Of a DNA stretch of 64,000 nt, positions 4,454 through 62,850 are shown piece by piece. Source of the DNA: a bacterium. Lineage in GTDB: Bacteria; Patescibacteriota; Minisyncoccia; Phycocordibacterales; CAIZLB01. The position numbers and the translations under genes are program-made. Under the pieces are notes generated by a model. It saw only the letters and a program-made list of their open reading frames with translations, made no database searches and was not told the DNA's origin. Where the stretch lies: contig JANOAN010000013.1 in the NCBI GenBank assembly GCA_031411135.1, forward strand, positions 30,581-94,580, written 5' to 3'. The number at the start of each line of letters is the position of its first letter. Position 1 is the first letter of the stretch.

Positions 4454-4494
4454 TAGCTTTTTTTAGGGATTTTTACTTTTTTTATACAATCATT

Positions 4495-4740
4495 CTATTT
4501 CTTAGAAGACGTAGCCGTGCTACTTGCTGGAGATTTTGCTGTTGTCGCCTTTTGCGGTTGTGGCGCTTGAGCTGACTGAGCTAATCTAATTTGGTCATTC
4601 AAAAAATTAACAACTTGAGTTAGTACTATATGATCTTCGTTAACTACTGCTCGAAGTTTATAAATTGTGTAAGCCTGGAAGCCAAAAACCGCTACGAATA
4701 TTCCTAATATAAATGGGGTGATAAATGATTTAATTTGCAT
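4495..4740 (-). CDS. hypothetical small membrane-anchored protein with an Ala/Ser/Thr-rich tail
   Basis: 81-aa ORF, one TM helix, low-complexity C-terminus. Confidence 0.4.
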   Translation of the reverse strand: MQIKSFITPFILGIFVAVFGFQAYTIYKLRAVVNEDHIVLTQVVNFLNDQIRLAQSAQAPQPQKATTAKSPASSTATSSKK

Positions 4741-4854
4741 ATGAAAATTATAGCATTTATAAGTAAAATAAAAACAATTTTTGTAAAAATATATGTGGAT
4801 AATTTAGATTTTTACATATTTGCTTTAAATCAAAATATATTGTATTATTTTTCT

Positions 4855-5136
4855 ATGAACTGTTCATTTACGTTTCCAGGGGACATGTCCCCAAATCAAA
4901 CCCTCGTTGCATCTGTGAGGACACCCGACCAAGTTGCGCTTGAAAAAGTCGCGGCTGAGAAGCCGGGCTTCACAAGTTTCACTTACGGGACTATGTCCAA
5001 GAGTACTGATGGCAATGCCATTTTTCCAATCTTTGCAACAGCAAAGGACGATGTGCTAGTCTGATAGCATCACTCGTTTGAGGATTTCAGAATCGCCTCT
5101 CTCCGGCCACAATCGGAGGGAGGCATTTTCTTTTTG
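4855..5136 (+). ncRNA. candidate small RNA of unknown family (alternatively a 70-aa ORF 4855..5064)
   Basis: A ~280-nt GC-rich block lies in an otherwise AT-rich 400-nt gap between two minus-strand genes. An AT-rich promoter-like tract (TTGTAA/TTTACA...TATAAT-like) sits upstream. It ends in a strong plus-strand intrinsic terminator, and no SD precedes the ATG. Internal hairpins are present (ggggacatgtcccc; cggcu-GAGA-agccg). Confidence 0.3.
5096..5136 (+). terminator. plus-strand rho-independent terminator
   Basis: 10-bp stem cctctctccg/cggagggagg with one G·U pair, stable only as plus-strand RNA, followed by cattttctttttg. Confidence 0.55.
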
Positions 5137-5137
5137 T

Positions 5138-5566
5138 CTATTTTGCTTTAGCAACTTCCCTATCCAAAGCCTGGACCATAATACTTCCTGATTTTAATTG
5201 CTCAGAATACAGAATATGATTTCTAGAAATTTCCATGAAATCTTCTGGGTTGTGAATGTTATCTTTAATAGAAACAATATCTATTGAGTCTGCACTCGAT
5301 GATGCATTTTGTTTTAAGTAATGGGTCTTATGAAGTGTAATACTTGATGAAAAAGGAACTGTTACAAATTTACCAAAAAATACTTGATTATTGTCTAGGA
5401 AAACGGCTTTCCATGAATTCATCTTCACAAAAAAGGAAATAATTAACCATAGGATAAATATAATTGCCAAAATAAAAACTCCTAGTTTTACCAAACTAAT
5501 ATTTCTAATTTTTCTGAATGATACTTCACTGGCTGGGTTTAAAATTGTTTTTGCTCTTGGTGCCAT
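5138..5566 (-). CDS. hypothetical N-anchored protein, last gene of the surface-protein operon
   Basis: 142 aa, N-terminal TM helix. Lies 22 nt downstream of the giant gene on the same strand. Confidence 0.5.
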   Translation of the reverse strand: MAPRAKTILNPASEVSFRKIRNISLVKLGVFILAIIFILWLIISFFVKMNSWKAVFLDNNQVFFGKFVTVPFSSSITLHKTHYLKQNASSSADSIDIVSIKDNIHNPEDFMEISRNHILYSEQLKSGSIMVQALDREVAKAK

Positions 5567-5588
5567 ATATTTTAATATTATACACTAA

Positions 5589-8500
5589 CTAGTTATTTGT
5601 TGCTTCTGGTGCCGGTGCAGCTGTTGCTTCTGGTGCTGCAATCACTTCTGGTGCTGGTGTAGGTGCAGTTTCAGTTTGCGGAGCTACAGGTTCAGAAACT
5701 GTAGGAATTACAGATGTTGGTGTTGTTGGCACGGGGTCAATTATAGTTTCAGTAACTGGTGGGGTTGTAACTTCTGGTACCAAAACTGTAGTTGTTCCTA
5801 GATTATTTTCATTAGACGAAACTGGTGTTGAATCCCCTGCACCCCCAACACCTACGGTTGATGTTGCGCCTTCTGATGAAACCCTGTTTTCATCGATAGA
5901 CAAAGTAGTTGATGTTGTTGTGGTTGTTGATGTATTTTGGTTAATATCATCTGTCGTTGTTGATGTATTTGTTGATGAAATAATTGTACTAATTTGATTA
6001 TCAGCATCATCCTTTGATTTGTAAGTTTTTACAAAGAACCAGTCGAATGAAATGCTAGATTGAGCTGGATGAACAATCCTGACCAAGAATCCTTGTCCTG
6101 CTCGCTTTTCAGCTACGAACAATGGTACATCTGTTGCAGAAGTTGGGGTCAGGAATACGTTTGAATTTTGATCAATTTGATTATTTTCAATAAAGACTTC
6201 CATTGTGCTTGTCGCAATGAAACCAACACCCGCAAGCTCGTTAGTGCCCGATGGCACAAAGATACTTCCTCCTGGCAAAATAGCTAGCACTTTGACAAAT
6301 GCTTGTTTTACATTCAATGCAATTACTGTAATTTTGTTTACCACCAGTGATGATATGTTCTGTGCCACTGATGTTATTGACATTGCAATGTCTGAAATAC
6401 TTGTATTTGCTAAGTCTACAATTTTTGACATCAAATCATCTCCTGTTTCAGTAAGCATATCAATAGTAGATGACGCGATGTCCAGTGTAGTGGTTGCATT
6501 GTCCAAATCATTTGAAGAAATTGTCTCCATTCCTATGAACACCATTACTGTTGCAGCTTCTGTCGAGTCACTGCCGTCGTATGCAGACATAGCACGTCCT
6601 ACAACACGTCCCGGATGTGTTGCCTTCGCGGCTTTTCCTGGCTCGGTGCTAGTCATCAAATAATCCCCGATAACAATTGGACCATTTTCAAGAGTGACTT
6701 TTACAGGTACGCGTCCTGCTAGTGCTACAGGGATGGCTGTGGCGCCATCAATTGTGGCATCCTGCTGTGATAATCGTAAGGCAGGATTTTTTGAATATAT
6801 ACCAATAACATTTTTGTCATTTGTGCCTGATGATTTTGTTACCAATCCGTGTTCGTGAACATCAATACTAATTACATCGCCCGCTTCTAAGGTGTCGTCT
6901 CGTGTTGGATAGTCCTCGGCTATGTCATATGCACCAAAAGCGGTATTAATACCATGACTAAACCTGAACACACCAGTGTTTAGATTTCCTGTATTTGCGA
7001 ATGAATTATTGTCTCCAAAAAACTGAATAGTACCTGTATTTAAATTTCCGTTTACTTCACCTCCACCCTGACCAGAGTTTGCATTAAACATAAGGTTATA
7101 GGATTCCTGACCAATAAAGTTATATGAATAGACTTCTGCACCGTTTGCTTTTCCTGTACCGAACCATAGATCTCCGTTATAAATATTTATTGAATAAACT
7201 CCTGTGATAGCATTAGATGCGGCACCTGTGATCACTCCGGCTGTGGTACTTGAAACTCGAGTCCAGTTATTACCAATATCTAATTGATAAACTTCGGCGG
7301 TATTACTTGTGTCTACAGTACCTACATAAAGGTTACCCTTATAAACTCCCATTGCACCAATTGAGTCGATACCCGTTGTTGCTCCCACGTCTTCCGCAAT
7401 AACACCAACTGTTGAACTAGATACCACCTGAAAGACGTTTGTTGCACCGGCTGCTGTTGCGGCGGTACTGTCCCATTTCAATACACGTGCAGTACCAGCA
7501 CCGTCACTGATACCCAGATAAAGTTTACCGTTAAAATTAGACATTGATGTAATAGAGTCTACGGCGGTAATTGCAACACTTTGTCCAGCAAACGTACCAG
7601 CTGTGTTTAAAATAGTGAAACCGTTACCAGGTGTAGCACCCGGGCCATCATATCTATAGAGACCTGCAGCATTCAGCTTGTTTCCTGCAACATACAGGGT
7701 ACCCAGGTAAGTGGCCATAGCACTGATCTTATCGACCAGTGTGGTTGCTCCAATTGTACCGGCGTTAGTTAAATGAGAGACCTTTGTCCAGTTGTTGTTG
7801 TTTCCTGTTCCAACATCATATCTATACACTTCAGCTCCTCCAGTTTTCTGAGTACCGATATATAGAAAACCTCCATTAACAGTCATGGCTGACACAGCAT
7901 CAATTGCAGTTGTTGTTGCAGTACCACCGATTGCCCCAGCAGTACTACTTGAAATCAAACTCCATGTCGTACCACCTCCATATCTGTAAACTTCAGCTGC
8001 ACCAGTTTTACCGGTACCAATATATAATTGTCCGTTGTATACAATCATTGAAGCAATTGAAGTGATCGCTGCCGTTCCTCCACTTGCAATTGTTCCAGCT
8101 GTCGCTTGAGACACCTTTGTCCAGTTACTTGTTCCACTATCAAATCGGTAAATTTCTGCCGCTCCAGAAGAAGATGCGGTTCCTGCATACAGTGATCCAT
8201 TAAAGACAGTCATTACAGTTGTTGAACCAATACCTGTCGTTCCTGCAGAGCGGATTTGGCCAACTGCTGTTGATCGAGTTGTCCAAGTAGCTGTGGTTGA
8301 AGCTTGAGATCCGACTAAAACATTCCCCATCACGGTTAATTTTTCAGAAGGTGATGTTGTACCAATACCTAAACGTTTGTTTGTGTTATCCCAGAAGAAG
8401 TTACTGTCAGCGTTGAATGCACCTGTAGTTGAGAACTGTACATACCCATCTGAACCACTTGGAGTACCCGCACCAACCCCTCCGATTGTTGTCCACGAAC

Positions 8501-11500
8501 CAGCAGAGTTCTTAAACTGCATTGTTCCTGCATTGTCTCTGAATCCATATCCGTTTGTTCCAGTGGCAACTGTTCCGAAGTTTAGATACCTAGACAGTCC
8601 CTCGAGCCAGACGTCACCATTTACGTCAAGTTTAGCGGCGGGAGTAGAAGTTCCCAAGCCCAAATTTCCTGATGCAGTCACTGTAACTAATCTTGTATTA
8701 GAAGATGATGATATCGCTAACAAATCTGTTGTTGGAGTACTCGATGTTCCATAAATATCCAATTTTGCAGATGGAGTGGTTGTTCCGATTCCAACAGTTC
8801 CAGTTGAGGATGCAACATAAACTAAATTTTCCAAACTAAGCGCACCGCTAGTATTTTTTAATGGAATATTTGGCAAGTAAAATCCAGTAGAATCAATACT
8901 GACAGTTTTGTTTGGTTGTTGATACGCATAAACCCCACCCGGTGCACCGTTAACATTGTCCATGTATTGAAGTTCCAACCTACTAGACAGTGATGTTGAT
9001 GAAATGTTTGTTATATAGTTATTAAATCTTCCAGTTGTGTGAGTGTTTTGAGCACTATCTTTTGCTCCAAATGCATAGTGTCCCGCAATATTTCCGTTTG
9101 CTGCGGTTGCTTGGTTGTAAAGTACAAAAATACCACCAGTACTGTAATCAATAACTTGCATTCTACCTGAATTAAACATTTCCAATATTAGTCTATTACT
9201 ACTATCTAATGCTGCAATAGTTCTTGATGTTGTATCAGTTGTACTGCCTGTAACGGTAAATCGTCCGTATTCTGTTGGCGAGGCAATTAATTGACTACCT
9301 GCAAAATATGACTTTGCGGCAGATCCATTATAAATTGAATAATTATTCGTTGTACCAGCACCCCCTGTACCACCATTACCTGTTATGTATAAACCGTAGT
9401 TATTAGTTGTACCTGCACCAGAACCAGAACCTAAAAATATCTGCCCACCGAAGTTATTAACTGTTCCCCCAGAACCCGCAGCAGCTGTGTGTCCTCCAAT
9501 TAAATATCCATAGTTATTGATAGTGCCAGATGTTGTACCATTACCATTTGAAAAACCAGCAGATACAAACCCAGAGTAATTCGTAAAAGGCAAAGTGCCG
9601 GACTGAGTAGGTGCTCCTGCATAAAATCCATATCCACTGGAAATCAATCCTGTATAACTTGCTGCGGTGTCTACTCGACTGTATGTTCCAAACACATTTG
9701 ATATAGGAGCGGAACTGTTGGCAATAGTGGGTAAGTTAATTAGACCGAAAACACTACTCACAGAAGCTCCTGTTGGGGTAATTACCGAACCATTATAAAA
9801 ACCATTGATTTGCCCAGTATTCGAAGAACTGACAGTTCCGGAAAGCTTAAGTAGAGCGTCCCCCCCTGATGTTGTGGTTAAAGTTCCACCTACATCAAGT
9901 TTTGAAGTTGGAGCAGAAACACTCAAACCAATGTTTCCGTTGGCTGCTACTGTAAATATTCTGGAATTTGATGAAGAAGATACTGCAAATATATCAGTTG
10001 TTGGAGCAGTGGATGTTCCATATACATCTAACGTGGCAGTTGGAGAGGTTACTCCAATACCAACTAACCCTGCTGTATTAATTGTAAACTTTGTTGAATT
10101 AAAGTTTGCCTGATTTGTAGATATTTTAAATTTACTGGAATCATTTGAATCAAGCCCCATGGACCAGGCTTGATTATTTGTTTTCAAGAAAGTCAGGAAC
10201 GTTCCAAAAGAATTCGCGGCTGAGTTTTCTAAAACAACTTGAGTTTTTGTTGAGGTTGCGATAAATCTAGCAACATCCTGAACACCAATTCCGGCTACAA
10301 CATCTAGATAAAAAGTAGGAGTTGTTGTTCCAATACCGACATTACCAGAACCAGCAGCAATAGCAATCGCGGCCTTCGAATGTGTTCCGTTTATCAAAAT
10401 CGATCTTTCTGATGTTGAATCATCTTGAATACTTGATGACGCTATACCTCCAATAAATCCACCGGTGTTTTGACCCGTAAAACCTAAACCAACCTGAAAT
10501 TGACGGCCGAAAGCATTTGAAATTAAATGTGCTGCTGCGGTGTTTGCATTTCCAAGAGCGTTACTCCAAATAGCGGTTGGTGAATATCCCGTAGTGTTAT
10601 ACGTTGTTGCAAGTGTCCCATAGTTCGCTGCGTCAATTTCGGCCCCAGTATACTTCCCAGTATCATTATCTCTTCTTCCAAGGAAGAAACCTCCAATTCC
10701 CGCACCCGTACCGGAACCAGTAATCCTACCTACTCCATAAACTCCTAACGCATCATTTTCTCCACCACCACCAGGATTTGATGTCGAATCATTTAAACCA
10801 AAACCAGAAACCCCGACAGGTTGAACTTCTGTACCACTTACACCTTTAGCAATACCCACAATGGCTGAATAGGCTTCAACACCATCACCATTAATGCTGT
10901 TTGCAGTTGCAATTGCATCAGTAATAGAAAGAATTCTTTCAACCTTAAGTCCTGGATTTGTATTTTGATCAGGTGAAGCGGTTGTACCTATTCTAATTCC
11001 CAATTCTTGGGCCGTTGTTGTGTTATACATTTGAACAGCATCACCTGTTCCAATTGAAAGTCGTGACCAAGGCGAGGTTGTTGCAAGACCCAACCTTCCA
11101 TTCGCAGTGACTGTAAATATTCTCGCATTTGATGAAGATGAGACTGCGAACAGATCCGTAGTTGGCGCACTTGATGTGCCGTAAATATCGAGTCTTGCAG
11201 ATGCAGAAGAAGTACCAATTCCAAAACTCGATGAAATTGCTGCCGTAGTATTTCCGAGAATAAATTTGTTTGAACCACTTGTAGCTTCTGAATATAATTT
11301 CCAATTTGGCGCACTATTACTGCTATACCAACTAATAGCATTGTTTTTTGCCAACGCTATTGCAGGAGGTGTTGGATCAGTTGAAGTACTGATTGCATCA
11401 GCAGAGATTATAATACCACTGTTAAAAAGTCCTCCATTTGGAGTAATTTGAATAGCAGCAGTAACACTAGTAAATGTTCCAGGTATAGTACTCGTCCCTG

Positions 11501-13211
11501 AATCAACACGAAGACCAAATGTTCCACCTGGAACATTGTCTAGGTACGGAGTCGTAGAGACAGATGTCCAGTGATTTCCTACGCTAATTTCCGCACCGAA
11601 AGTTTGCAAACCCTGATTCCCTGATGCTTCTGTATCCGCCTCTACATAAATACCCCACGCTGTATGAGCTACAGTCGGATGGTCGTTCACAGCCAAAAAA
11701 TCGGCACCTATTACCGCACTACTTGTTCCTCCAGTATTATCCCTTGCACGTGAAGCAAATACCCCGCCTGCAAGACCGAATGGACTAACTGCGTAAACGC
11801 TGTGCAAAGATGGATACTGAGCACCGCTGAGATAATCTTTTGGCCATGCAGCAGCAGAAGCAGAACCAAAGTATCCATAGTCAGCATAAGCTATACCGCT
11901 TACTGATAGTGGAAATGCAGGACTTGAGCTGCCAATCCCCACATTCCCTTCCGCAGTGATGGTAAACAATCGAATGTTTGTAGAAGAAGCGATAGCAAAA
12001 ATATCTGTCGTAGCACCAGATGTTCCAGTAATAGCGAGTTTTGCTGAAGGTGAGGTGGTGCCGATACCAACGTTTCCGCCAGAGGTGATTCTTAGTCGTT
12101 CAGTTCGTGAGACTGATCCATCAGCTGTAGTGAGGAATCTTAAGTAGGTAGGCAAAGAAGTAGTGCTCACAGTTCCTGAATCTACTATAGCCTCAATACC
12201 TGAGGTATGTCTAAAAGCACTGCCGGCATATCCTCCGAAAATATTAAATCCTAGTCTATCTCCTGCTACCACATCAGTTGGTAAGGCATCAGTACCACGA
12301 GCATATCTTGCCAAAACTCCTCCACCAGCATTAACGTTTGTTCCCCCGTAAGAATCAAGATTTAAGGTCAATGCAACAGTGGCGTTACTTTGAGTCACTT
12401 TAAAGGGTGAGTTTGCTGATGTTGTATAGACATGAAGGAGTGCGGAGGGTGTACTCGTACCAATCCCCACATTCCCCGCTGCGTTCACTGTAAACAACCT
12501 CGCATTTGTAGATGAAGAAATAGCAAATATATCGGCTGACCCAGCGGTGCCATATATATCGAGTTTGGCGGATGGGCTACTTGTCCCAATTCCCACATTT
12601 CCATTCGATAATAAATCCAATGCGATAACACTACTCGTTCCTGTAAATGTAGCTATATGCCCAGTTCCAAGTTGTCTAATATCCAAAAAAGTACTCGCGG
12701 TATTCGTAGAATTAATTGCATCCGCTCTCAAAAACTGATCCGATGAGAGCCCATTTAAATATTGTGATTGAATTGCCGCAGGTACCGCTCCCAATTTTTT
12801 ACGTGGACTCATTTCTCCGTCATACGACGGTGCTCCTGTACCACCAATGTTTACCCCTAAATAAAGCGTCTGATTAAAATCAACTCCGGTAAATGCAGTT
12901 GTACTTCCAAGCATTACTGAAAACAAACCATTTGTTACCTGCACTTTGTTTGCACCAGTATCAGTTTCAGTCCAAACAGGTGTTGTAGTTGAATTGTTTA
13001 CATACAATTTAAATTCAATATTGTACAAACCATCAGCAACTGCAACACCTGCATTATCAGTCAGTTTTCCCTGGTAATTTATTTGTTGGTTAATGGCAGC
13101 ATCTGCCACCAAGACTCTGACCCCCCATATTGCAAATATTAAAACAAAAGTTCCAATTATAAAATTGAAATTTAGTTTGCTCTTATTTTTCTTTAAATGA
13201 AATATACTCAT
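5589..13211 (-). CDS. giant (2540 aa) Gly/Thr/Ser-rich surface protein with an N-terminal signal-anchor, tail-fibre-like repeats, a 7-bladed beta-propeller region and a Thr/Pro-rich C-terminal stalk
   Basis: Single uninterrupted ORF. N-terminal TM/signal (IIGTFVLIFAIWGV). At least 5 copies of a ~45-aa repeat (TDIFAISSSxNxRIFTVxAxGNVGIGTxxPSAKLDxxG). Seven LYxGT..G.AEVYRYD..W..VS blades. The C-terminus is TTPPVTETIIDPVPTTPTS...APAPE. Confidence 0.85.
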   Translation of the reverse strand: MSIFHLKKNKSKLNFNFIIGTFVLIFAIWGVRVLVADAAINQQINYQGKLTDNAGVAVADGLYNIEFKLYVNNSTTTPVWTETDTGANKVQVTNGLFSVMLGSTTAFTGVDFNQTLYLGVNIGGTGAPSYDGEMSPRKKLGAVPAAIQSQYLNGLSSDQFLRADAINSTNTASTFLDIRQLGTGHIATFTGTSSVIALDLLSNGNVGIGTSSPSAKLDIYGTAGSADIFAISSSTNARLFTVNAAGNVGIGTSTPSALLHVYTTSANSPFKVTQSNATVALTLNLDSYGGTNVNAGGGVLARYARGTDALPTDVVAGDRLGFNIFGGYAGSAFRHTSGIEAIVDSGTVSTTSLPTYLRFLTTADGSVSRTERLRITSGGNVGIGTTSPSAKLAITGTSGATTDIFAIASSTNIRLFTITAEGNVGIGSSSPAFPLSVSGIAYADYGYFGSASAAAWPKDYLSGAQYPSLHSVYAVSPFGLAGGVFASRARDNTGGTSSAVIGADFLAVNDHPTVAHTAWGIYVEADTEASGNQGLQTFGAEISVGNHWTSVSTTPYLDNVPGGTFGLRVDSGTSTIPGTFTSVTAAIQITPNGGLFNSGIIISADAISTSTDPTPPAIALAKNNAISWYSSNSAPNWKLYSEATSGSNKFILGNTTAAISSSFGIGTSSASARLDIYGTSSAPTTDLFAVSSSSNARIFTVTANGRLGLATTSPWSRLSIGTGDAVQMYNTTTAQELGIRIGTTASPDQNTNPGLKVERILSITDAIATANSINGDGVEAYSAIVGIAKGVSGTEVQPVGVSGFGLNDSTSNPGGGGENDALGVYGVGRITGSGTGAGIGGFFLGRRDNDTGKYTGAEIDAANYGTLATTYNTTGYSPTAIWSNALGNANTAAAHLISNAFGRQFQVGLGFTGQNTGGFIGGIASSSIQDDSTSERSILINGTHSKAAIAIAAGSGNVGIGTTTPTFYLDVVAGIGVQDVARFIATSTKTQVVLENSAANSFGTFLTFLKTNNQAWSMGLDSNDSSKFKISTNQANFNSTKFTINTAGLVGIGVTSPTATLDVYGTSTAPTTDIFAVSSSSNSRIFTVAANGNIGLSVSAPTSKLDVGGTLTTTSGGDALLKLSGTVSSSNTGQINGFYNGSVITPTGASVSSVFGLINLPTIANSSAPISNVFGTYSRVDTAASYTGLISSGYGFYAGAPTQSGTLPFTNYSGFVSAGFSNGNGTTSGTINNYGYLIGGHTAAAGSGGTVNNFGGQIFLGSGSGAGTTNNYGLYITGNGGTGGAGTTNNYSIYNGSAAKSYFAGSQLIASPTEYGRFTVTGSTTDTTSRTIAALDSSNRLILEMFNSGRMQVIDYSTGGIFVLYNQATAANGNIAGHYAFGAKDSAQNTHTTGRFNNYITNISSTSLSSRLELQYMDNVNGAPGGVYAYQQPNKTVSIDSTGFYLPNIPLKNTSGALSLENLVYVASSTGTVGIGTTTPSAKLDIYGTSSTPTTDLLAISSSSNTRLVTVTASGNLGLGTSTPAAKLDVNGDVWLEGLSRYLNFGTVATGTNGYGFRDNAGTMQFKNSAGSWTTIGGVGAGTPSGSDGYVQFSTTGAFNADSNFFWDNTNKRLGIGTTSPSEKLTVMGNVLVGSQASTTATWTTRSTAVGQIRSAGTTGIGSTTVMTVFNGSLYAGTASSSGAAEIYRFDSGTSNWTKVSQATAGTIASGGTAAITSIASMIVYNGQLYIGTGKTGAAEVYRYGGGTTWSLISSSTAGAIGGTATTTAIDAVSAMTVNGGFLYIGTQKTGGAEVYRYDVGTGNNNNWTKVSHLTNAGTIGATTLVDKISAMATYLGTLYVAGNKLNAAGLYRYDGPGATPGNGFTILNTAGTFAGQSVAITAVDSITSMSNFNGKLYLGISDGAGTARVLKWDSTAATAAGATNVFQVVSSSTVGVIAEDVGATTGIDSIGAMGVYKGNLYVGTVDTSNTAEVYQLDIGNNWTRVSSTTAGVITGAASNAITGVYSINIYNGDLWFGTGKANGAEVYSYNFIGQESYNLMFNANSGQGGGEVNGNLNTGTIQFFGDNNSFANTGNLNTGVFRFSHGINTAFGAYDIAEDYPTRDDTLEAGDVISIDVHEHGLVTKSSGTNDKNVIGIYSKNPALRLSQQDATIDGATAIPVALAGRVPVKVTLENGPIVIGDYLMTSTEPGKAAKATHPGRVVGRAMSAYDGSDSTEAATVMVFIGMETISSNDLDNATTTLDIASSTIDMLTETGDDLMSKIVDLANTSISDIAMSITSVAQNISSLVVNKITVIALNVKQAFVKVLAILPGGSIFVPSGTNELAGVGFIATSTMEVFIENNQIDQNSNVFLTPTSATDVPLFVAEKRAGQGFLVRIVHPAQSSISFDWFFVKTYKSKDDADNQISTIISSTNTSTTTDDINQNTSTTTTTSTTLSIDENRVSSEGATSTVGVGGAGDSTPVSSNENNLGTTTVLVPEVTTPPVTETIIDPVPTTPTSVIPTVSEPVAPQTETAPTPAPEVIAAPEATAAPAPEATNN

Positions 13212-19801: not shown

Positions 19802-20641
19802 TTACATAAACATCTCCCTAAACTCCGCAAACGGCATGCCGTAGTTGAACCCAGGCTTCCTCTCCTGCAGGCGTCCACACTTACTCTTGTCGTATTTTGG
19901 AGTTTTCTGAAGCTGCACGAAACACACCGCGGACCAGCGTCCACTTTTGGCAGTTTCTTCAGTCGCCACTACACGATGACAAAGTGCAGTAAGTTTACCC
20001 TCCGATCTCTGCTGCATCTGCATGGAGTTGATGATGAGCGTCGCATCGCCGGAGAACGTAGCACCCTGCCACTCTTGTGCACCCAAAGACAGCGTCTCAA
20101 ATCCCGGAGCACTTTCAGACAAGTGTAGAGTGAAGCCACTCTGGTCTACATGGGCAGAGGCCGTCTCCTCTCCGGCTTTCCTGTCGCCGAAGTAGTGGAT
20201 GAAGCGCACAAAAAATCCAGCTTCGCTGGCTTCGACTTCGTCGGCAAATCCTGGGATGCCAAATTCTCTTTCAACATCTCGAGCGAAACGCATGATGGTC
20301 GGCTTCATCACTGACACCAGGGAGGTTGCACTCGACACAAACTCGCGCGCGACAGGATCTTCAATTCGCGACAGGTTTTCCTTCAGCCAGTCTTGACCGC
20401 CTACAGCGACATCGAGATTTTCCTTTGAATCACCCTTATTACCAGTTCCGTCTTTGAGCTCGTATCCGACGCCGTCAGAGCCGTTGCTGTATGGGAGGCC
20501 TTTCTTAACATCAGCCGGGAGAGCAGTAAACTTTTGCCAGAGCCTCATTGCATCAGCTACCGCTTGCAGCAAATCTGGTGGATAAGGAATTACTACCGCA
20601 CCTTCAGTTCCAAGTTTTTTTATATCGTATGTTTCAATCAT
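19802..20641 (-). CDS. 2-oxoglutarate/Fe(II)-dependent oxygenase (isopenicillin-N-synthase-like family)
   Basis: HxD in AHVDQSGFTLHL and a distal His/Arg in ALCHRV. GC is ~52% against a ~36% background. Confidence 0.7.
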   Translation of the reverse strand: MIETYDIKKLGTEGAVVIPYPPDLLQAVADAMRLWQKFTALPADVKKGLPYSNGSDGVGYELKDGTGNKGDSKENLDVAVGGQDWLKENLSRIEDPVAREFVSSATSLVSVMKPTIMRFARDVEREFGIPGFADEVEASEAGFFVRFIHYFGDRKAGEETASAHVDQSGFTLHLSESAPGFETLSLGAQEWQGATFSGDATLIINSMQMQQRSEGKLTALCHRVVATEETAKSGRWSAVCFVQLQKTPKYDKSKCGRLQERKPGFNYGMPFAEFREMFM

Positions 20642-23204: not shown

Positions 23205-24098
23205 ATGAGAAACACAACAATAACAACACAGCTACCCGCAATTCAAACACAAATAATCACAATGGTCGAAAAAGCCATCGAGATTATCCGTGCTAACTGC
23301 GGGAACATGCAGGCCCAAGTCAAAGTCAGCTACGCCGGCAATAACGACGACTGCGTCACCATCGCCGACAAACTGGCTCAGGAAATGTATCTGGAGGAAA
23401 TCCGGAAACACTTCCCTACATTCGGCATCATCGCCGAGGAACAGGAGCTGACTATCCCTTGCACGGACAAAAACTTCGATGTTTACTTCACCATCGACCC
23501 ATTGGACGGTACGAAAGCATTCGCGAGAAAGCAATCACACGGCGTCGGCACAATGCTCGCTCTGATCTCTGATGGAAACATCGTTGCAGTTGCAATCGGC
23601 GACGTGAACACTGGCGAAGTTTATACTTACGCCAACGAAAGCGAACACTGCGAGGTGACAAGGCTTCGCTTCGGGGTTAAGTATCAACTTGAGCCAGAGA
23701 AAAAACCTTTGGCCGAGCAATACGCCTTCCTCTTGGACCATCCAAGGGAACAACCAGAGATCGTGCGCAACATGATTCTGCCAGCACCCAAGGACGGAGG
23801 CTTGTTCAAGGACTTCGAAATCGGCAGCGGCAGTATCGGCCTTCGTTTCGCTCGTCTTTGGAAAGGCGAAGTTGGCGGAATCTTCTTGACGCCGACCTTC
23901 GACACGCCATGGGATTTGATGCCGGTTCTTGGCATCACCAAAAAGCTCGGGTTCAAGTTCCTGAAGATAGATGGTAGGGCGCTCGTAGACTTCGAACCAG
24001 AGATGGTCCGCACAGTCACTCGGATGCCACACAACCTCCTAATCATCCACGAAACACACACAACCGAACTACACCAATGGATGCAAAACCAAAAATAG
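23205..24098 (+). CDS. inositol-monophosphatase / 3'(2'),5'-bisphosphate nucleotidase family protein
   Basis: FGIIAEE and DPLDGT motifs. GC ~52%. The true start is possibly at 23262 (MVEKAIEII), where the GC-rich coding begins. Confidence 0.75.
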   Translation: MRNTTITTQLPAIQTQIITMVEKAIEIIRANCGNMQAQVKVSYAGNNDDCVTIADKLAQEMYLEEIRKHFPTFGIIAEEQELTIPCTDKNFDVYFTIDPLDGTKAFARKQSHGVGTMLALISDGNIVAVAIGDVNTGEVYTYANESEHCEVTRLRFGVKYQLEPEKKPLAEQYAFLLDHPREQPEIVRNMILPAPKDGGLFKDFEIGSGSIGLRFARLWKGEVGGIFLTPTFDTPWDLMPVLGITKKLGFKFLKIDGRALVDFEPEMVRTVTRMPHNLLIIHETHTTELHQWMQNQK

Positions 24099-30926: not shown

Positions 30927-31787
30927 TTAAGGATTGATCTCGACGAATTCTTTGTTTGCAAGCAAAACGGCGTCCATATCTGCAGCATGCCCAGAGCAAT
31001 GCGAACGCACATTTGCCACAAAGATTCCATCGCGACACAAGAGACTCAATGCCCCGAGAATGTCGAGAGCCCTGTGCCGCACGATCTGGCGCAACAATGC
31101 CTGCTTGTCGTCGTGCAGCTTCGACCAATTGACCGCATTGAAGTGCGGCCACCAGATCTTGCTGCAAATTTGGGCAATCCGGTAACGGAAGCCGGACACG
31201 CCCAGCGTTTTCGCTTGGCATATTTCCACGAAGAGGGCGCTGTTAGGTAGCGAGAACACTTCCTCGTGACGTCCAATCCCAGGGTAGTCAACCGTGACTT
31301 CGATATTCAACCTTCAGTCGGTCGATGGATGGATTTCAGTGCAAGCGCGAACGCCGTTCCGGTCAAAACGATTGGAATACGTTCCACGAACCGACCTCTG
31401 GACCGTGTAGATCTTCAGCGGACTCACGACCTCTCTGGAATTTGATTTCACAAGCTCCCAAAGACCCTTCGAACAACCGTCATAGGGTGGCCATCCCTCT
31501 CCTTCAATCTGCACGCCAACAAGGCCGGCGTAACGGAGAGCCCCAATGTGTTCGAAAACTTCCAAAGTCTGTCCCATGGTACCAATGAGCCTGATCCGAG
31601 ACCGAGTACATTCGCTAAAACTCGGAATGATCGGTATGGGCCTAATACTCTCACTTGGTAACCATGACCATTCACTGTGTGAAGCTGAATGTAGGGTGAT
31701 CGACTTTTGACCTCCCCAAAACCCTCGGCCGCTATACGTAACTGAATTAGTCAGCCTTAAAGGGCTGAATACGTTCTGACTGCTCAT
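30927..31787 (-). pseudogene. LpxC-like deacetylase gene interrupted by an in-frame TGA (GC-rich, foreign-looking)
   Basis: The N-terminal part matches LpxC (GRGFWGGQKSITLHSA; TLEVFEHIGALRYAGLVGVQIEGEG..PPYDGCSKGLWELV versus TVEHLNAALAGLGIDN..PIMDGSAAPF). The C-terminal part matches IVRHRALDILGAL...SGHAADMDAVLLAN (versus FVRHKMLDAIGDL...SGHALNNKLL). Both parts are in the same frame, separated by TGA at 31314-31316. A strong SD ccaGGAGGtaaaaATG precedes the start. GC ~55%. Confidence 0.65.
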
Positions 31788-34554: not shown

Positions 34555-34584
34555 ATTAGATAAGACGTTTAGAGTCTCTCAAAC

Positions 34585-35169
34585 TTACTTGTGCCCTACT
34601 TTCCTTTTAATAAATACTGTCATGACTAAATTTGTACAAATCATCGCAATTGAATGGAACGTAGTCGCGATGTTGTACGCCCCCAAAGAGAACAGGGTTA
34701 GAATATGTCGTGCAACATTCATTTCATACAAAAGTGGTCTTTCTGTTTCTGGATGAGCCCATGTTTTTCGTAAAGTTGGCATAAACGCCACAATGTCGAT
34801 CAAGACTACAATTACAACTGAAACTGTAGGATCATTAGTTAAAGCCCAAGGTATAAGTCCGACAAGTGCAATCACAAGAAAATAGTGGTCAACTTTACGG
34901 ATATGCCCAGTCTTCCTTTTAAAAATATACTTAAGTGAAAAGAGAAAAATAATTATTGTAAATGCTTCTGCAACACCTGTTGGCAAGGCGCCGATTCCAG
35001 CGCCTTTAGCGAGTCCCCCCAAAAAAGTGGTCATGGAAACAATAGACCAGATGAACCATGTGTATGGGTGTGGGTGCACATGGCCTTTAATCACATCTTT
35101 GAGATACGAGATGTTTCCAATGATTGCAAGAATTGCAGCGATGATGGCGATAGCTTCTTTCATGGGCAC
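34585..35169 (-). CDS. hypothetical polytopic membrane protein
   Basis: 194 aa with about 5 TM helices. Begins 14 nt downstream of tRNA-Gln. Confidence 0.45.
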   Translation of the reverse strand: MPMKEAIAIIAAILAIIGNISYLKDVIKGHVHPHPYTWFIWSIVSMTTFLGGLAKGAGIGALPTGVAEAFTIIIFLFSLKYIFKRKTGHIRKVDHYFLVIALVGLIPWALTNDPTVSVVIVVLIDIVAFMPTLRKTWAHPETERPLLYEMNVARHILTLFSLGAYNIATTFHSIAMICTNLVMTVFIKRKVGHK

Positions 35170-35182
35170 ATTCTATCATTTT

Positions 35183-62636: not shown

Positions 62637-62719
62637 AGTGACTTTCGTCACTCGTACCAGTTTCCCGATACGGCCGATCAGAGCAAACCCCATATAATGG
62701 GTTCTTTGGCTCTGATCGG
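62637..62719. promoter_or_regulatory. nested inverted repeats in a divergent promoter region (putative operator)
   Basis: gtgac-tttc-gtcac. An 11-bp perfect inverted repeat ccgatcagagc...gctctgatcgg encloses the palindrome cccATATAATggg, a -10-like hexamer. Confidence 0.45.
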
Positions 62720-62850
62720 AGCTTCTTTCACCATGCCACCGATTGCTCGATGGTTTAGGCTACTTTTGGACTTATTTAGTTGTATATCAATGATAGCATG
62801 TTACTCCCCGCCGATAAACACTATTCTTTGTTTTAGGGTAAAATATAACC

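Follow-up and report, generated by a model that had tools for sequence, protein, structure and literature searches.

We examined a 397-nt gap (4741–5137) in a 64,000-nucleotide fragment of a low-GC (38%) Patescibacteria/CPR genome (MAG), hereafter the window; the gap is bounded by two minus-strand ORFs that encode an 81-aa protein (4495–4740(−)) and a 142-aa protein (5138–5566(−)). An earlier reading of this DNA, made from its letters alone (the sequence-only reading), had described a gap of about 400 nt between two minus-strand genes, in which an AT-rich tract gives way to a GC-rich block, and had proposed an unannotated, independent plus-strand transcription unit and candidate sRNA. The layout is as described: the first 114 nt of the gap (4741–4854) are 14% GC, and the block that follows (4855–5137) is 48% GC against 38% in the window, which ranks it at the 95th percentile among windows of 283 nt. 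As several coding regions equal or surpass this value, the GC content of the block is elevated rather than unique. The plus strand of the block carries the perfect palindrome GGGGACATGTCCCC (4879–4892) and the GAGA-capped hairpin CGGCU-GAGA-AGCCG (4952–4965), both of which the sequence-only reading had picked out. It also holds the open frame MNCSF...AKDDVLV that this reading had noted, 69 codons closed by TGA and then by an in-frame TAG. The positions of the main features are collected in Table 1.

Table 1. Positions of the features at the small-ORF locus and what supports them
Feature	Position	Strand	Support
Extended −10 TGCTATAAT of the 81-aa gene	4747–4755	−	6 nt upstream of ATG (4740); also in L039
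Invariant motif TATGTGGATAA (12-mer)	4792–4802		Unchanged in window, L039 and L041; flanking AT-rich sequence diverges
Weak −35-like hexamer TTGCTT (L041: TTGCAT)	4820–4825	+	TTGC.T invariant in three sequences
−10 hexamer TATTAT, within invariant TTGTATTAT	4843–4848	+	Invariant in three sequences
Coding sequence, 69 aa (MNCSFTFPGD...AKDDVLV)	4855–5064	+	Conserved ORF, dN/dS, frame-specific similarity
Hairpin CUUUGC-AACA-GCAAAG, last codons of the ORF	5031–5046	+	Window MFE structure and L039
Intrinsic terminator: stem-loop 5095–5124 and T-tract 5125–5137	5095–5137	+	Conserved in L039 and L041

Homologous loci were found on two related Patescibacteria contigs, L039 and L041, reached via the 142-aa neighbour protein (contigs L039 to L042). 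An nhmmer search with the block recovered L039 at 79% nucleotide identity and L041 weakly (E = 9e-7), the latter being a divergent homologue with 46% nucleotide identity to the window. In both contigs the block is placed between homologues of the 142-aa and 81-aa proteins, giving a conserved trio of a convergent 142-aa membrane protein, the small ORF and a divergent 81-aa membrane protein that adjoins a giant surface-protein gene; the small ORF was always found together with the 81-aa and 142-aa genes. The 81-aa protein, which carries a hydrophobic segment at its N-terminus, has counterparts next to the small ORF in L039 (83% identity) and L041 (55% identity). The small protein evolves faster than its surroundings, with 31% identity to its L041 counterpart versus 51–55% for the neighbours.

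The same reading frame is open in the window, L039 and L041 from a shared ATGAAC start, with lengths of 69, 68 and 65 codons (the L041 stop comes three codons earlier), and the sole internal indel in the three-sequence alignment is a single codon (3 nt) near the N-terminus. The encoded proteins are MNCSFTFPGDMSPNQTLVASVRTPDQVALEKVAAEKPGFTSFTYGTMSKSTDGNAIFPIFATAKDDVLV in the window, MNSSLFPGGMLPNQTLVGTSTTTDTAALEKVAAEKTGYANFSFGTMSRSNEGQVIIPIFATAKDDVLV in L039 (68 aa, 66% amino-acid identity to the window protein) and MNTTTFPGGARTSQTLIGTSPTKDPNKLAEIRKSKPAYRDITFGKAIQGHTGQPVFQILGTFRED in L041 (65 aa, 31% identity). Nei–Gojobori dN/dS was 0.35, 0.38 and 0.27 in the three comparisons, with dS saturated against L041, and synonymous differences exceeded non-synonymous ones (Fisher p = 0.0026, 0.011 and 0.0008). 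Among the six frames of the window block, the ORF frame alone matched L041 by tblastn (42 bits). We then scored gapless BLOSUM62 similarity against 5000 column shuffles that keep nucleotide identity and destroy codon structure: the ORF frame reached 90 versus −2.4 ± 18 in shuffles for window against L041 (z = 5.1, 0/5000) and 114 versus 17.5 ± 18.6 for L039 against L041. Across sequence pairs the ORF-frame z ranged from 3.0 to 5.2 and the other five frames lay near background (scores of −54 to +15 for window against L041). Differences by codon position were mildly skewed, at 11/13/22 between window and L039 (chi-square p = 0.11) and 34/31/38 between window and L041. Because there are three homologues only, these coding statistics rest on few independent changes, and an ORF this long stays open by chance in 3–7.5% of shuffles. 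The locus has a conserved ORF with a conserved start, an approximately conserved stop and indels in multiples of three, as well as promoter elements and a terminator that are conserved, and substitution within the ORF is codon-aware and frame-specific. The sequence-only reading had held that conservation following a codon pattern in relatives would mean a small protein, and had suggested a comparative alignment to tell such a pattern from covariation; the three-sequence alignment gave codon-pattern conservation and no covariation-supported consensus structure, so the candidate sRNA fails by that reading's own standard.

Upstream of the start codon, all three sequences have a 17-nt spacer without gaps between TTGC.T and the −10 hexamer, and the distance from TATTAT to the ATG is 6 nt in the window and L039 and 8 nt in L041. 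The −35-like hexamer was missed by a consensus scan because only 3/6 of its positions match TTGACA. The AT-rich promoter region proposed earlier is thus borne out, but the −35 elements then named (TTGTAA/TTTACA) are not the conserved ones. No Shine-Dalgarno motif (GGAG, GAGG or AGGA) lies upstream of ATG 4855, an absence that had been counted against the ORF. This objection falls away in the present genome: such a motif precedes the first ATG in just 3 of the 61 long ORFs of the window, and a −10-like box lies 5–9 nt upstream of 15 of these 61 first ATGs versus 9 of 379 internal in-frame ATGs, an approximately 10-fold enrichment with a modal spacer of 6 nt. Because the genome rarely uses a Shine-Dalgarno motif and often has a −10 box just before the ATG, a missing motif is uninformative. 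Box-bearing starts include those at 2529, 4740, 29687, 34581–35175, 38996, 39690, 48880, 51221, 61484 and 62842, where the boxes are TATAAT-like or TGnTAnAAT and stand 6–10 nt upstream.

A Pribnow box 6–8 nt from the start codon is the GeneMarkS-2 signature for leaderless genes (PMC6028130). With TATTAT 6 or 8 nt before the ATG, a normal start distance would put the 5′ end on or beside its A, and no Shine-Dalgarno motif is present; we infer that transcription starts at or within ~2 nt of A4855 and that the mRNA is leaderless. The frequency of −10 boxes at first ATGs suggests that leaderless mRNAs are widespread in this Patescibacteria genome. The 81-aa gene, with an extended −10 element at a similar distance from its own ATG, may likewise be expressed from a leaderless mRNA. 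In the mechanism that we propose, a sigma-70-type promoter (TTGCTT, 17-nt spacer, TATTAT) would start transcription at or near the A of ATG 4855, producing an mRNA with essentially no 5′ leader and no Shine-Dalgarno sequence, and hence leaderless translation; a 69-residue soluble protein would be made, and transcription would end at the intrinsic terminator.

The terminator has a GC-rich stem of 12 pairs (8 G-C and one G·U) closed by a loop of 6 and followed on the transcribed strand by the U-tract ATTTTCTTTT, and it adjoins the stop codon of the convergent 142-aa gene. A scan detected this structure on the plus strand only, with 2 terminator-like sites in all versus 0.7 expected in shuffles, in agreement with the earlier description of a strong plus-strand terminator whose single T·G in the stem gives a G·U pair in the RNA. 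Stem and T-run are kept in L039 and L041 through one- and two-sided compensatory changes. Because two homologous loci retain the promoter-like region together with the start and the intrinsic terminator, the proposal of an independent plus-strand transcription unit holds up well.

The remaining RNA structure is less well kept. The plus strand of 4855–5137 folds at −96.6 kcal/mol (z = −3.96, versus −2.2 for the minus strand), and the full-length homologues give z = −2.7 and −3.3. Leaving out the terminator brings the plus-strand value to z = −2.45, so much of the signal comes from the terminator, and the ORF alone gives z = −1.33 in the window and −2.04 and −1.95 in the homologues, within the range of 45 coding segments of the window (mean −0.08, sd 1.56). 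The RNAalifold covariation term for the three sequences is just −0.53 kcal/mol. Helices 5–9 of the window MFE structure are 42–67% paired across the three sequences and are largely broken in L041, and the internal helices that the sequence-only reading had taken for RNA structure (the palindrome and the GAGA hairpin) are not maintained there. A conserved, compensated structure was not recovered in this three-sequence comparison, which has low power, and the terminator alone is well kept. The hairpin in the last ORF codons has an L041 counterpart of different sequence, CUCGGA-ACUU-UCCGAG, in nearly the same place; in the codon alignment the two are offset by 1 nt, which makes this a similar hairpin rather than strict position-for-position covariation.

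Known RNA families were not matched either. An Rfam covariance-model search, one of the checks that the sequence-only reading had suggested, returned no match in 4741–5137 at the gathering thresholds of Rfam 15 (tmRNA, RNase P, SRP and 6S RNA included), and at E ≤ 10 only chance-level matches of 12–15 bits in the block (E ≥ 3.5); the homologous loci in L039 and L041 likewise gave chance-level matches only. ARAGORN found no tmRNA, and two tRNAs elsewhere in the window. That reading's failure to match the block to tmRNA, RNase P, SRP or 6S RNA is thus upheld by the Rfam search and, for tmRNA, by ARAGORN as well. The sole non-tRNA Rfam match in the window is a full-length LOOT RNA (RF03000) at 62637–62761(−), at 91.6 bits where the gathering threshold is 46.4.

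The ORF is not entirely new to annotation. A public predicted protein, P0001 (sources NCBI and Logan), is a 107-aa call that spans it, and gene callers predicted it in both the source genome (P0001) and L039 (P0009); in L041 it is absent from the gene calls. The label 'unannotated' is therefore not quite right, even though the features it was attached to are real, because the 107-aa protein is already in public predicted-protein sets. The upstream extension of this 107/109-aa call is interrupted by stop codons in both L039 and L041, which places the real start at ATG 4855; the public call probably begins within the AT-rich promoter region, ~38 codons ahead of this start.

The 69-aa protein, which includes the stretches TPDQVALEK, VAAEKPGFTSFTYGTMSK and STDGNAIFPIFATAK, has neither a hydrophobic segment nor a signal peptide, as read from its sequence. 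An AF2 model built on two input sequences (pLDDT 73, pTM 0.61) has a beta-alpha-beta-beta-beta layout with strands at residues 15–21, 39–44 and 55–63 and a helix at 26–35, and we predict, from this moderately confident model, a soluble protein with a compact alpha+beta fold. No protein family, solved structure or fold was matched: searches of viral contigs, PHROGs, PADLOC, NCBIfam, Pfam and PDB sequence profiles returned nothing for the small protein, and it has no similarity to the neighbouring 2540-aa protein. With no function to be inferred for it, this orphan is in kind an ordinary hypothetical small protein.

We looked for further relatives by protein similarity and by gene order. A word-indexed protein search with the ORF returned itself alone, and an exhaustive phmmer search of 1.84 billion representatives returned the ORF itself, the L039 protein P0009 and three large repeat proteins. 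The last three (P0008, P0010 and P0011) were rejected as artefacts because their scores add up 6–25 weak matches (24–38% identity) to near-identical repeats of unrelated families. A pattern scan of JGI metagenomes (−10 box, ATGAAY, TTYCCNGG) yielded 50 matches, all of them chance occurrences in unrelated ORFs. The block was found in none of 37 loci from GTDB genomes reached by synteny through the upstream HisRS-like gene, whose relatives come from Paceibacterota, Parcubacteria and other Patescibacteria MAGs. Nor does it occur downstream of HisRS in the closest relatives, L002–L004 (82–94% HisRS identity), where an MGMT-like (DNA_binding_1) gene stands right after HisRS (L002 5270–5530, L003 1634–1897, L004 5255–5512). 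In the window (4454–5588), synteny breaks after the HisRS-like gene and the MGMT-like gene is missing at that position; L039 has the order giant protein, 142 aa, small ORF, 83 aa, MGMT-like (1305–1583). The small ORF is also absent beside 142-aa homologues of ≤57% identity: a tRNA directly follows the 142-aa homologue in L040, pyruvate kinase does so in L042, and GAPDH or an acyltransferase in L093–L095. A profile search with the 142-aa family gathered 694 proteins, and the further loci fetched from it were without the small ORF. As wide protein, metagenome and viral searches added no further homologue, the gene is confined to a narrow lineage represented by three contigs.

The neighbouring minus-strand genes have wider families. 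The 142-aa protein has one N-terminal TM segment. Its family, uncharacterised but widespread among Patescibacteria, has the core SWKAVFLDNNQVFFGK...PF across the 694 proteins and is usually encoded directly downstream of a giant surface-protein gene. In the window that gene is 5589–13211(−), encoding a 2540-aa protein with an N-terminal hydrophobic segment, many repeats of the GNVGIGTxSPSAKLD...IFA..SS.N.R.FTV type and no Pfam match; homologous giant genes precede the 142-aa family in L040–L042 and L094–L097.

The composition of the small ORF is anomalous. Its GC1/GC2/GC3 values are 0.49/0.47/0.49, and the homologous ORFs have a GC3 of 0.54 in L039 and 0.58 in L041. By comparison, the genes of the window have a median GC3 of 0.34, and the neighbouring genes lie at about 0.25–0.38. 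A GC3 of 0.49–0.58 is atypical for a native gene, and the codon-position periodicity typical of the genome, a supportive rather than strictly defining feature of coding sequence, is missing. A few other window genes have a GC3 of 0.47–0.65. Those at 0.52–0.65 include 30927–31310(−), 23205–24098(+) and 19802–20641(−), which encode an LpxC-like fragment (below the Pfam cut-off), an inositol monophosphatase and a 2OG-Fe(II) oxygenase, respectively, and may have been horizontally acquired. We considered high GC3 as a mark of high expression and discarded the idea: the other high-GC3 genes of the window are neither ribosomal nor typically highly expressed.

Taken together, these data make it very probable that the block is a monocistronic small protein-coding gene read from a leaderless mRNA, and three other accounts have to be set against this. 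The block could be a non-coding structured sRNA of ~280 nt that runs from the AT-rich promoter to the terminator and contains the ORF by accident, as its GC-rich composition in an AT-rich genome, its lack of codon periodicity, its negative full-length fold z values in all three sequences and the chance openness of an ORF this long would allow. We consider this very unlikely, since the ORF and its start persist in three sequences whose only internal indel spans one codon, amino-acid similarity is confined to the ORF frame, dN/dS is below 0.4, the central helices 5–9 with the GAGA hairpin do not survive in L041, the covariation term is small, ORF-only folding lies within the coding background and no Rfam family occurs in the window or the homologues; a structured ncRNA without a conserved reading frame does not fit a locus in which the same frame is open in all three. 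Still less does the locus resemble a non-functional remnant, that is, a decaying acquired fragment or pseudogene whose frame happens to remain open. Its atypical composition, fast evolution and very narrow distribution, with absence both beside the 142-aa homologues of ≤57% identity and downstream of HisRS in the close relatives, would suit such an origin; however, purifying selection is detectable, the predicted fold is compact, and the −10 element, start codon and terminator are invariant or compensated across saturated synonymous divergence, which together make decay extremely unlikely.

A dual-function RNA, serving both as the message for the small protein and as a structured or base-pairing RNA, with selection on structure keeping synonymous G+C high, deserves separate attention. 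Selection on the RNA might explain why GC3 stays high in the three homologues across saturated synonymous divergence. In addition, L041 has a hairpin of different sequence in nearly the same place close to the 3′ end of the ORF, and folding z values are mildly but consistently negative. Against this, the other high-GC3 genes look acquired, so that high GC3 may mark foreign origin rather than structure, the 1-nt shift of the L041 hairpin is not true covariation, the three sequences yield no covariation-supported consensus structure, and no target or partner is identifiable. On balance we regard a second, RNA-level function as quite unlikely. The leaderless small-protein gene remains our preferred reading, and it does not account for two features, the unusually high GC3 and the conserved DnaA-box-like 12-mer that separates the divergent promoters.

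This 12-mer, TATGTGGATAA, lies within the promoter region of ~115 nt that the small ORF and the divergent 81-aa gene have in common, midway between the divergent starts and about 55–62 nt from both start codons. Part of it, TGTGGATAA (4794–4802), is a perfect reverse complement of the DnaA-box consensus TTATCCACA and forms a putative box. Further perfect DnaA-box 9-mers occur at 980, 17427 and 52717, all four copies in the same orientation, and matches with ≤1 mismatch are at chance level in the window (22 observed, 21 expected). As a guess held with low confidence, the product may be a small cytoplasmic protein or partner that is co-regulated with the divergent 81-aa membrane protein via the conserved 12-mer between their promoters. 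The joint proposition of a bifunctional transcript and a divergent leaderless pair controlled through the DnaA-box-like 12-mer appears distinctly unlikely.

The small-protein gene has counterparts among described systems. Leaderless genes in Mycobacterium, Deinococcus and GeneMarkS-2 'group C' genomes (PMC4633059, PMC6028130) likewise include small-protein genes with a −10 box 6–8 nt before the AUG and no Shine-Dalgarno motif, in which a short monocistronic ORF has its own terminator, an arrangement that recurs at many window genes. Here, by contrast, the host is a Patescibacteria (CPR) MAG rather than an actinobacterium, the gene is known from sequence alone, and its protein is without relatives outside three contigs. 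Trans-acting sRNAs and other ncRNAs in GC-rich islands share with the locus a GC-elevated block, an own promoter, a strong terminator and better folding than shuffles, but differ from it in that here the frame is conserved, substitutions are codon-aware, and neither covarying structure nor an Rfam match is present. The dual-function sRNAs SgrS/SgrT, RNAIII/hld and SR1/SR1P similarly combine a short transcript, a small ORF, stable hairpins and a terminator. In those RNAs the ORF is a minor part and a separate base-pairing region is conserved, whereas the present ORF takes up nearly the entire transcript and the terminator alone is a conserved non-coding segment.

The locus is thus most likely a real plus-strand transcription unit that probably yields a lineage-restricted 69-aa protein from a leaderless mRNA, a further small lineage-specific protein encoded alongside a giant surface-protein gene. 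The result is in part a correction: in AT-rich, Shine-Dalgarno-poor genomes, a GC-rich island with a promoter, a terminator and no Shine-Dalgarno motif is easily mistaken for an sRNA, and the public 107-aa gene call probably has the wrong start. Were the bifunctional transcript and the DnaA-linked control both true, expression of an envelope-associated gene cluster would be tied to DnaA in a CPR bacterium. Beyond this gene, the −10 boxes that abut start codons across the window suggest frequent leaderless translation in this CPR lineage, a point of practical value for gene calling.
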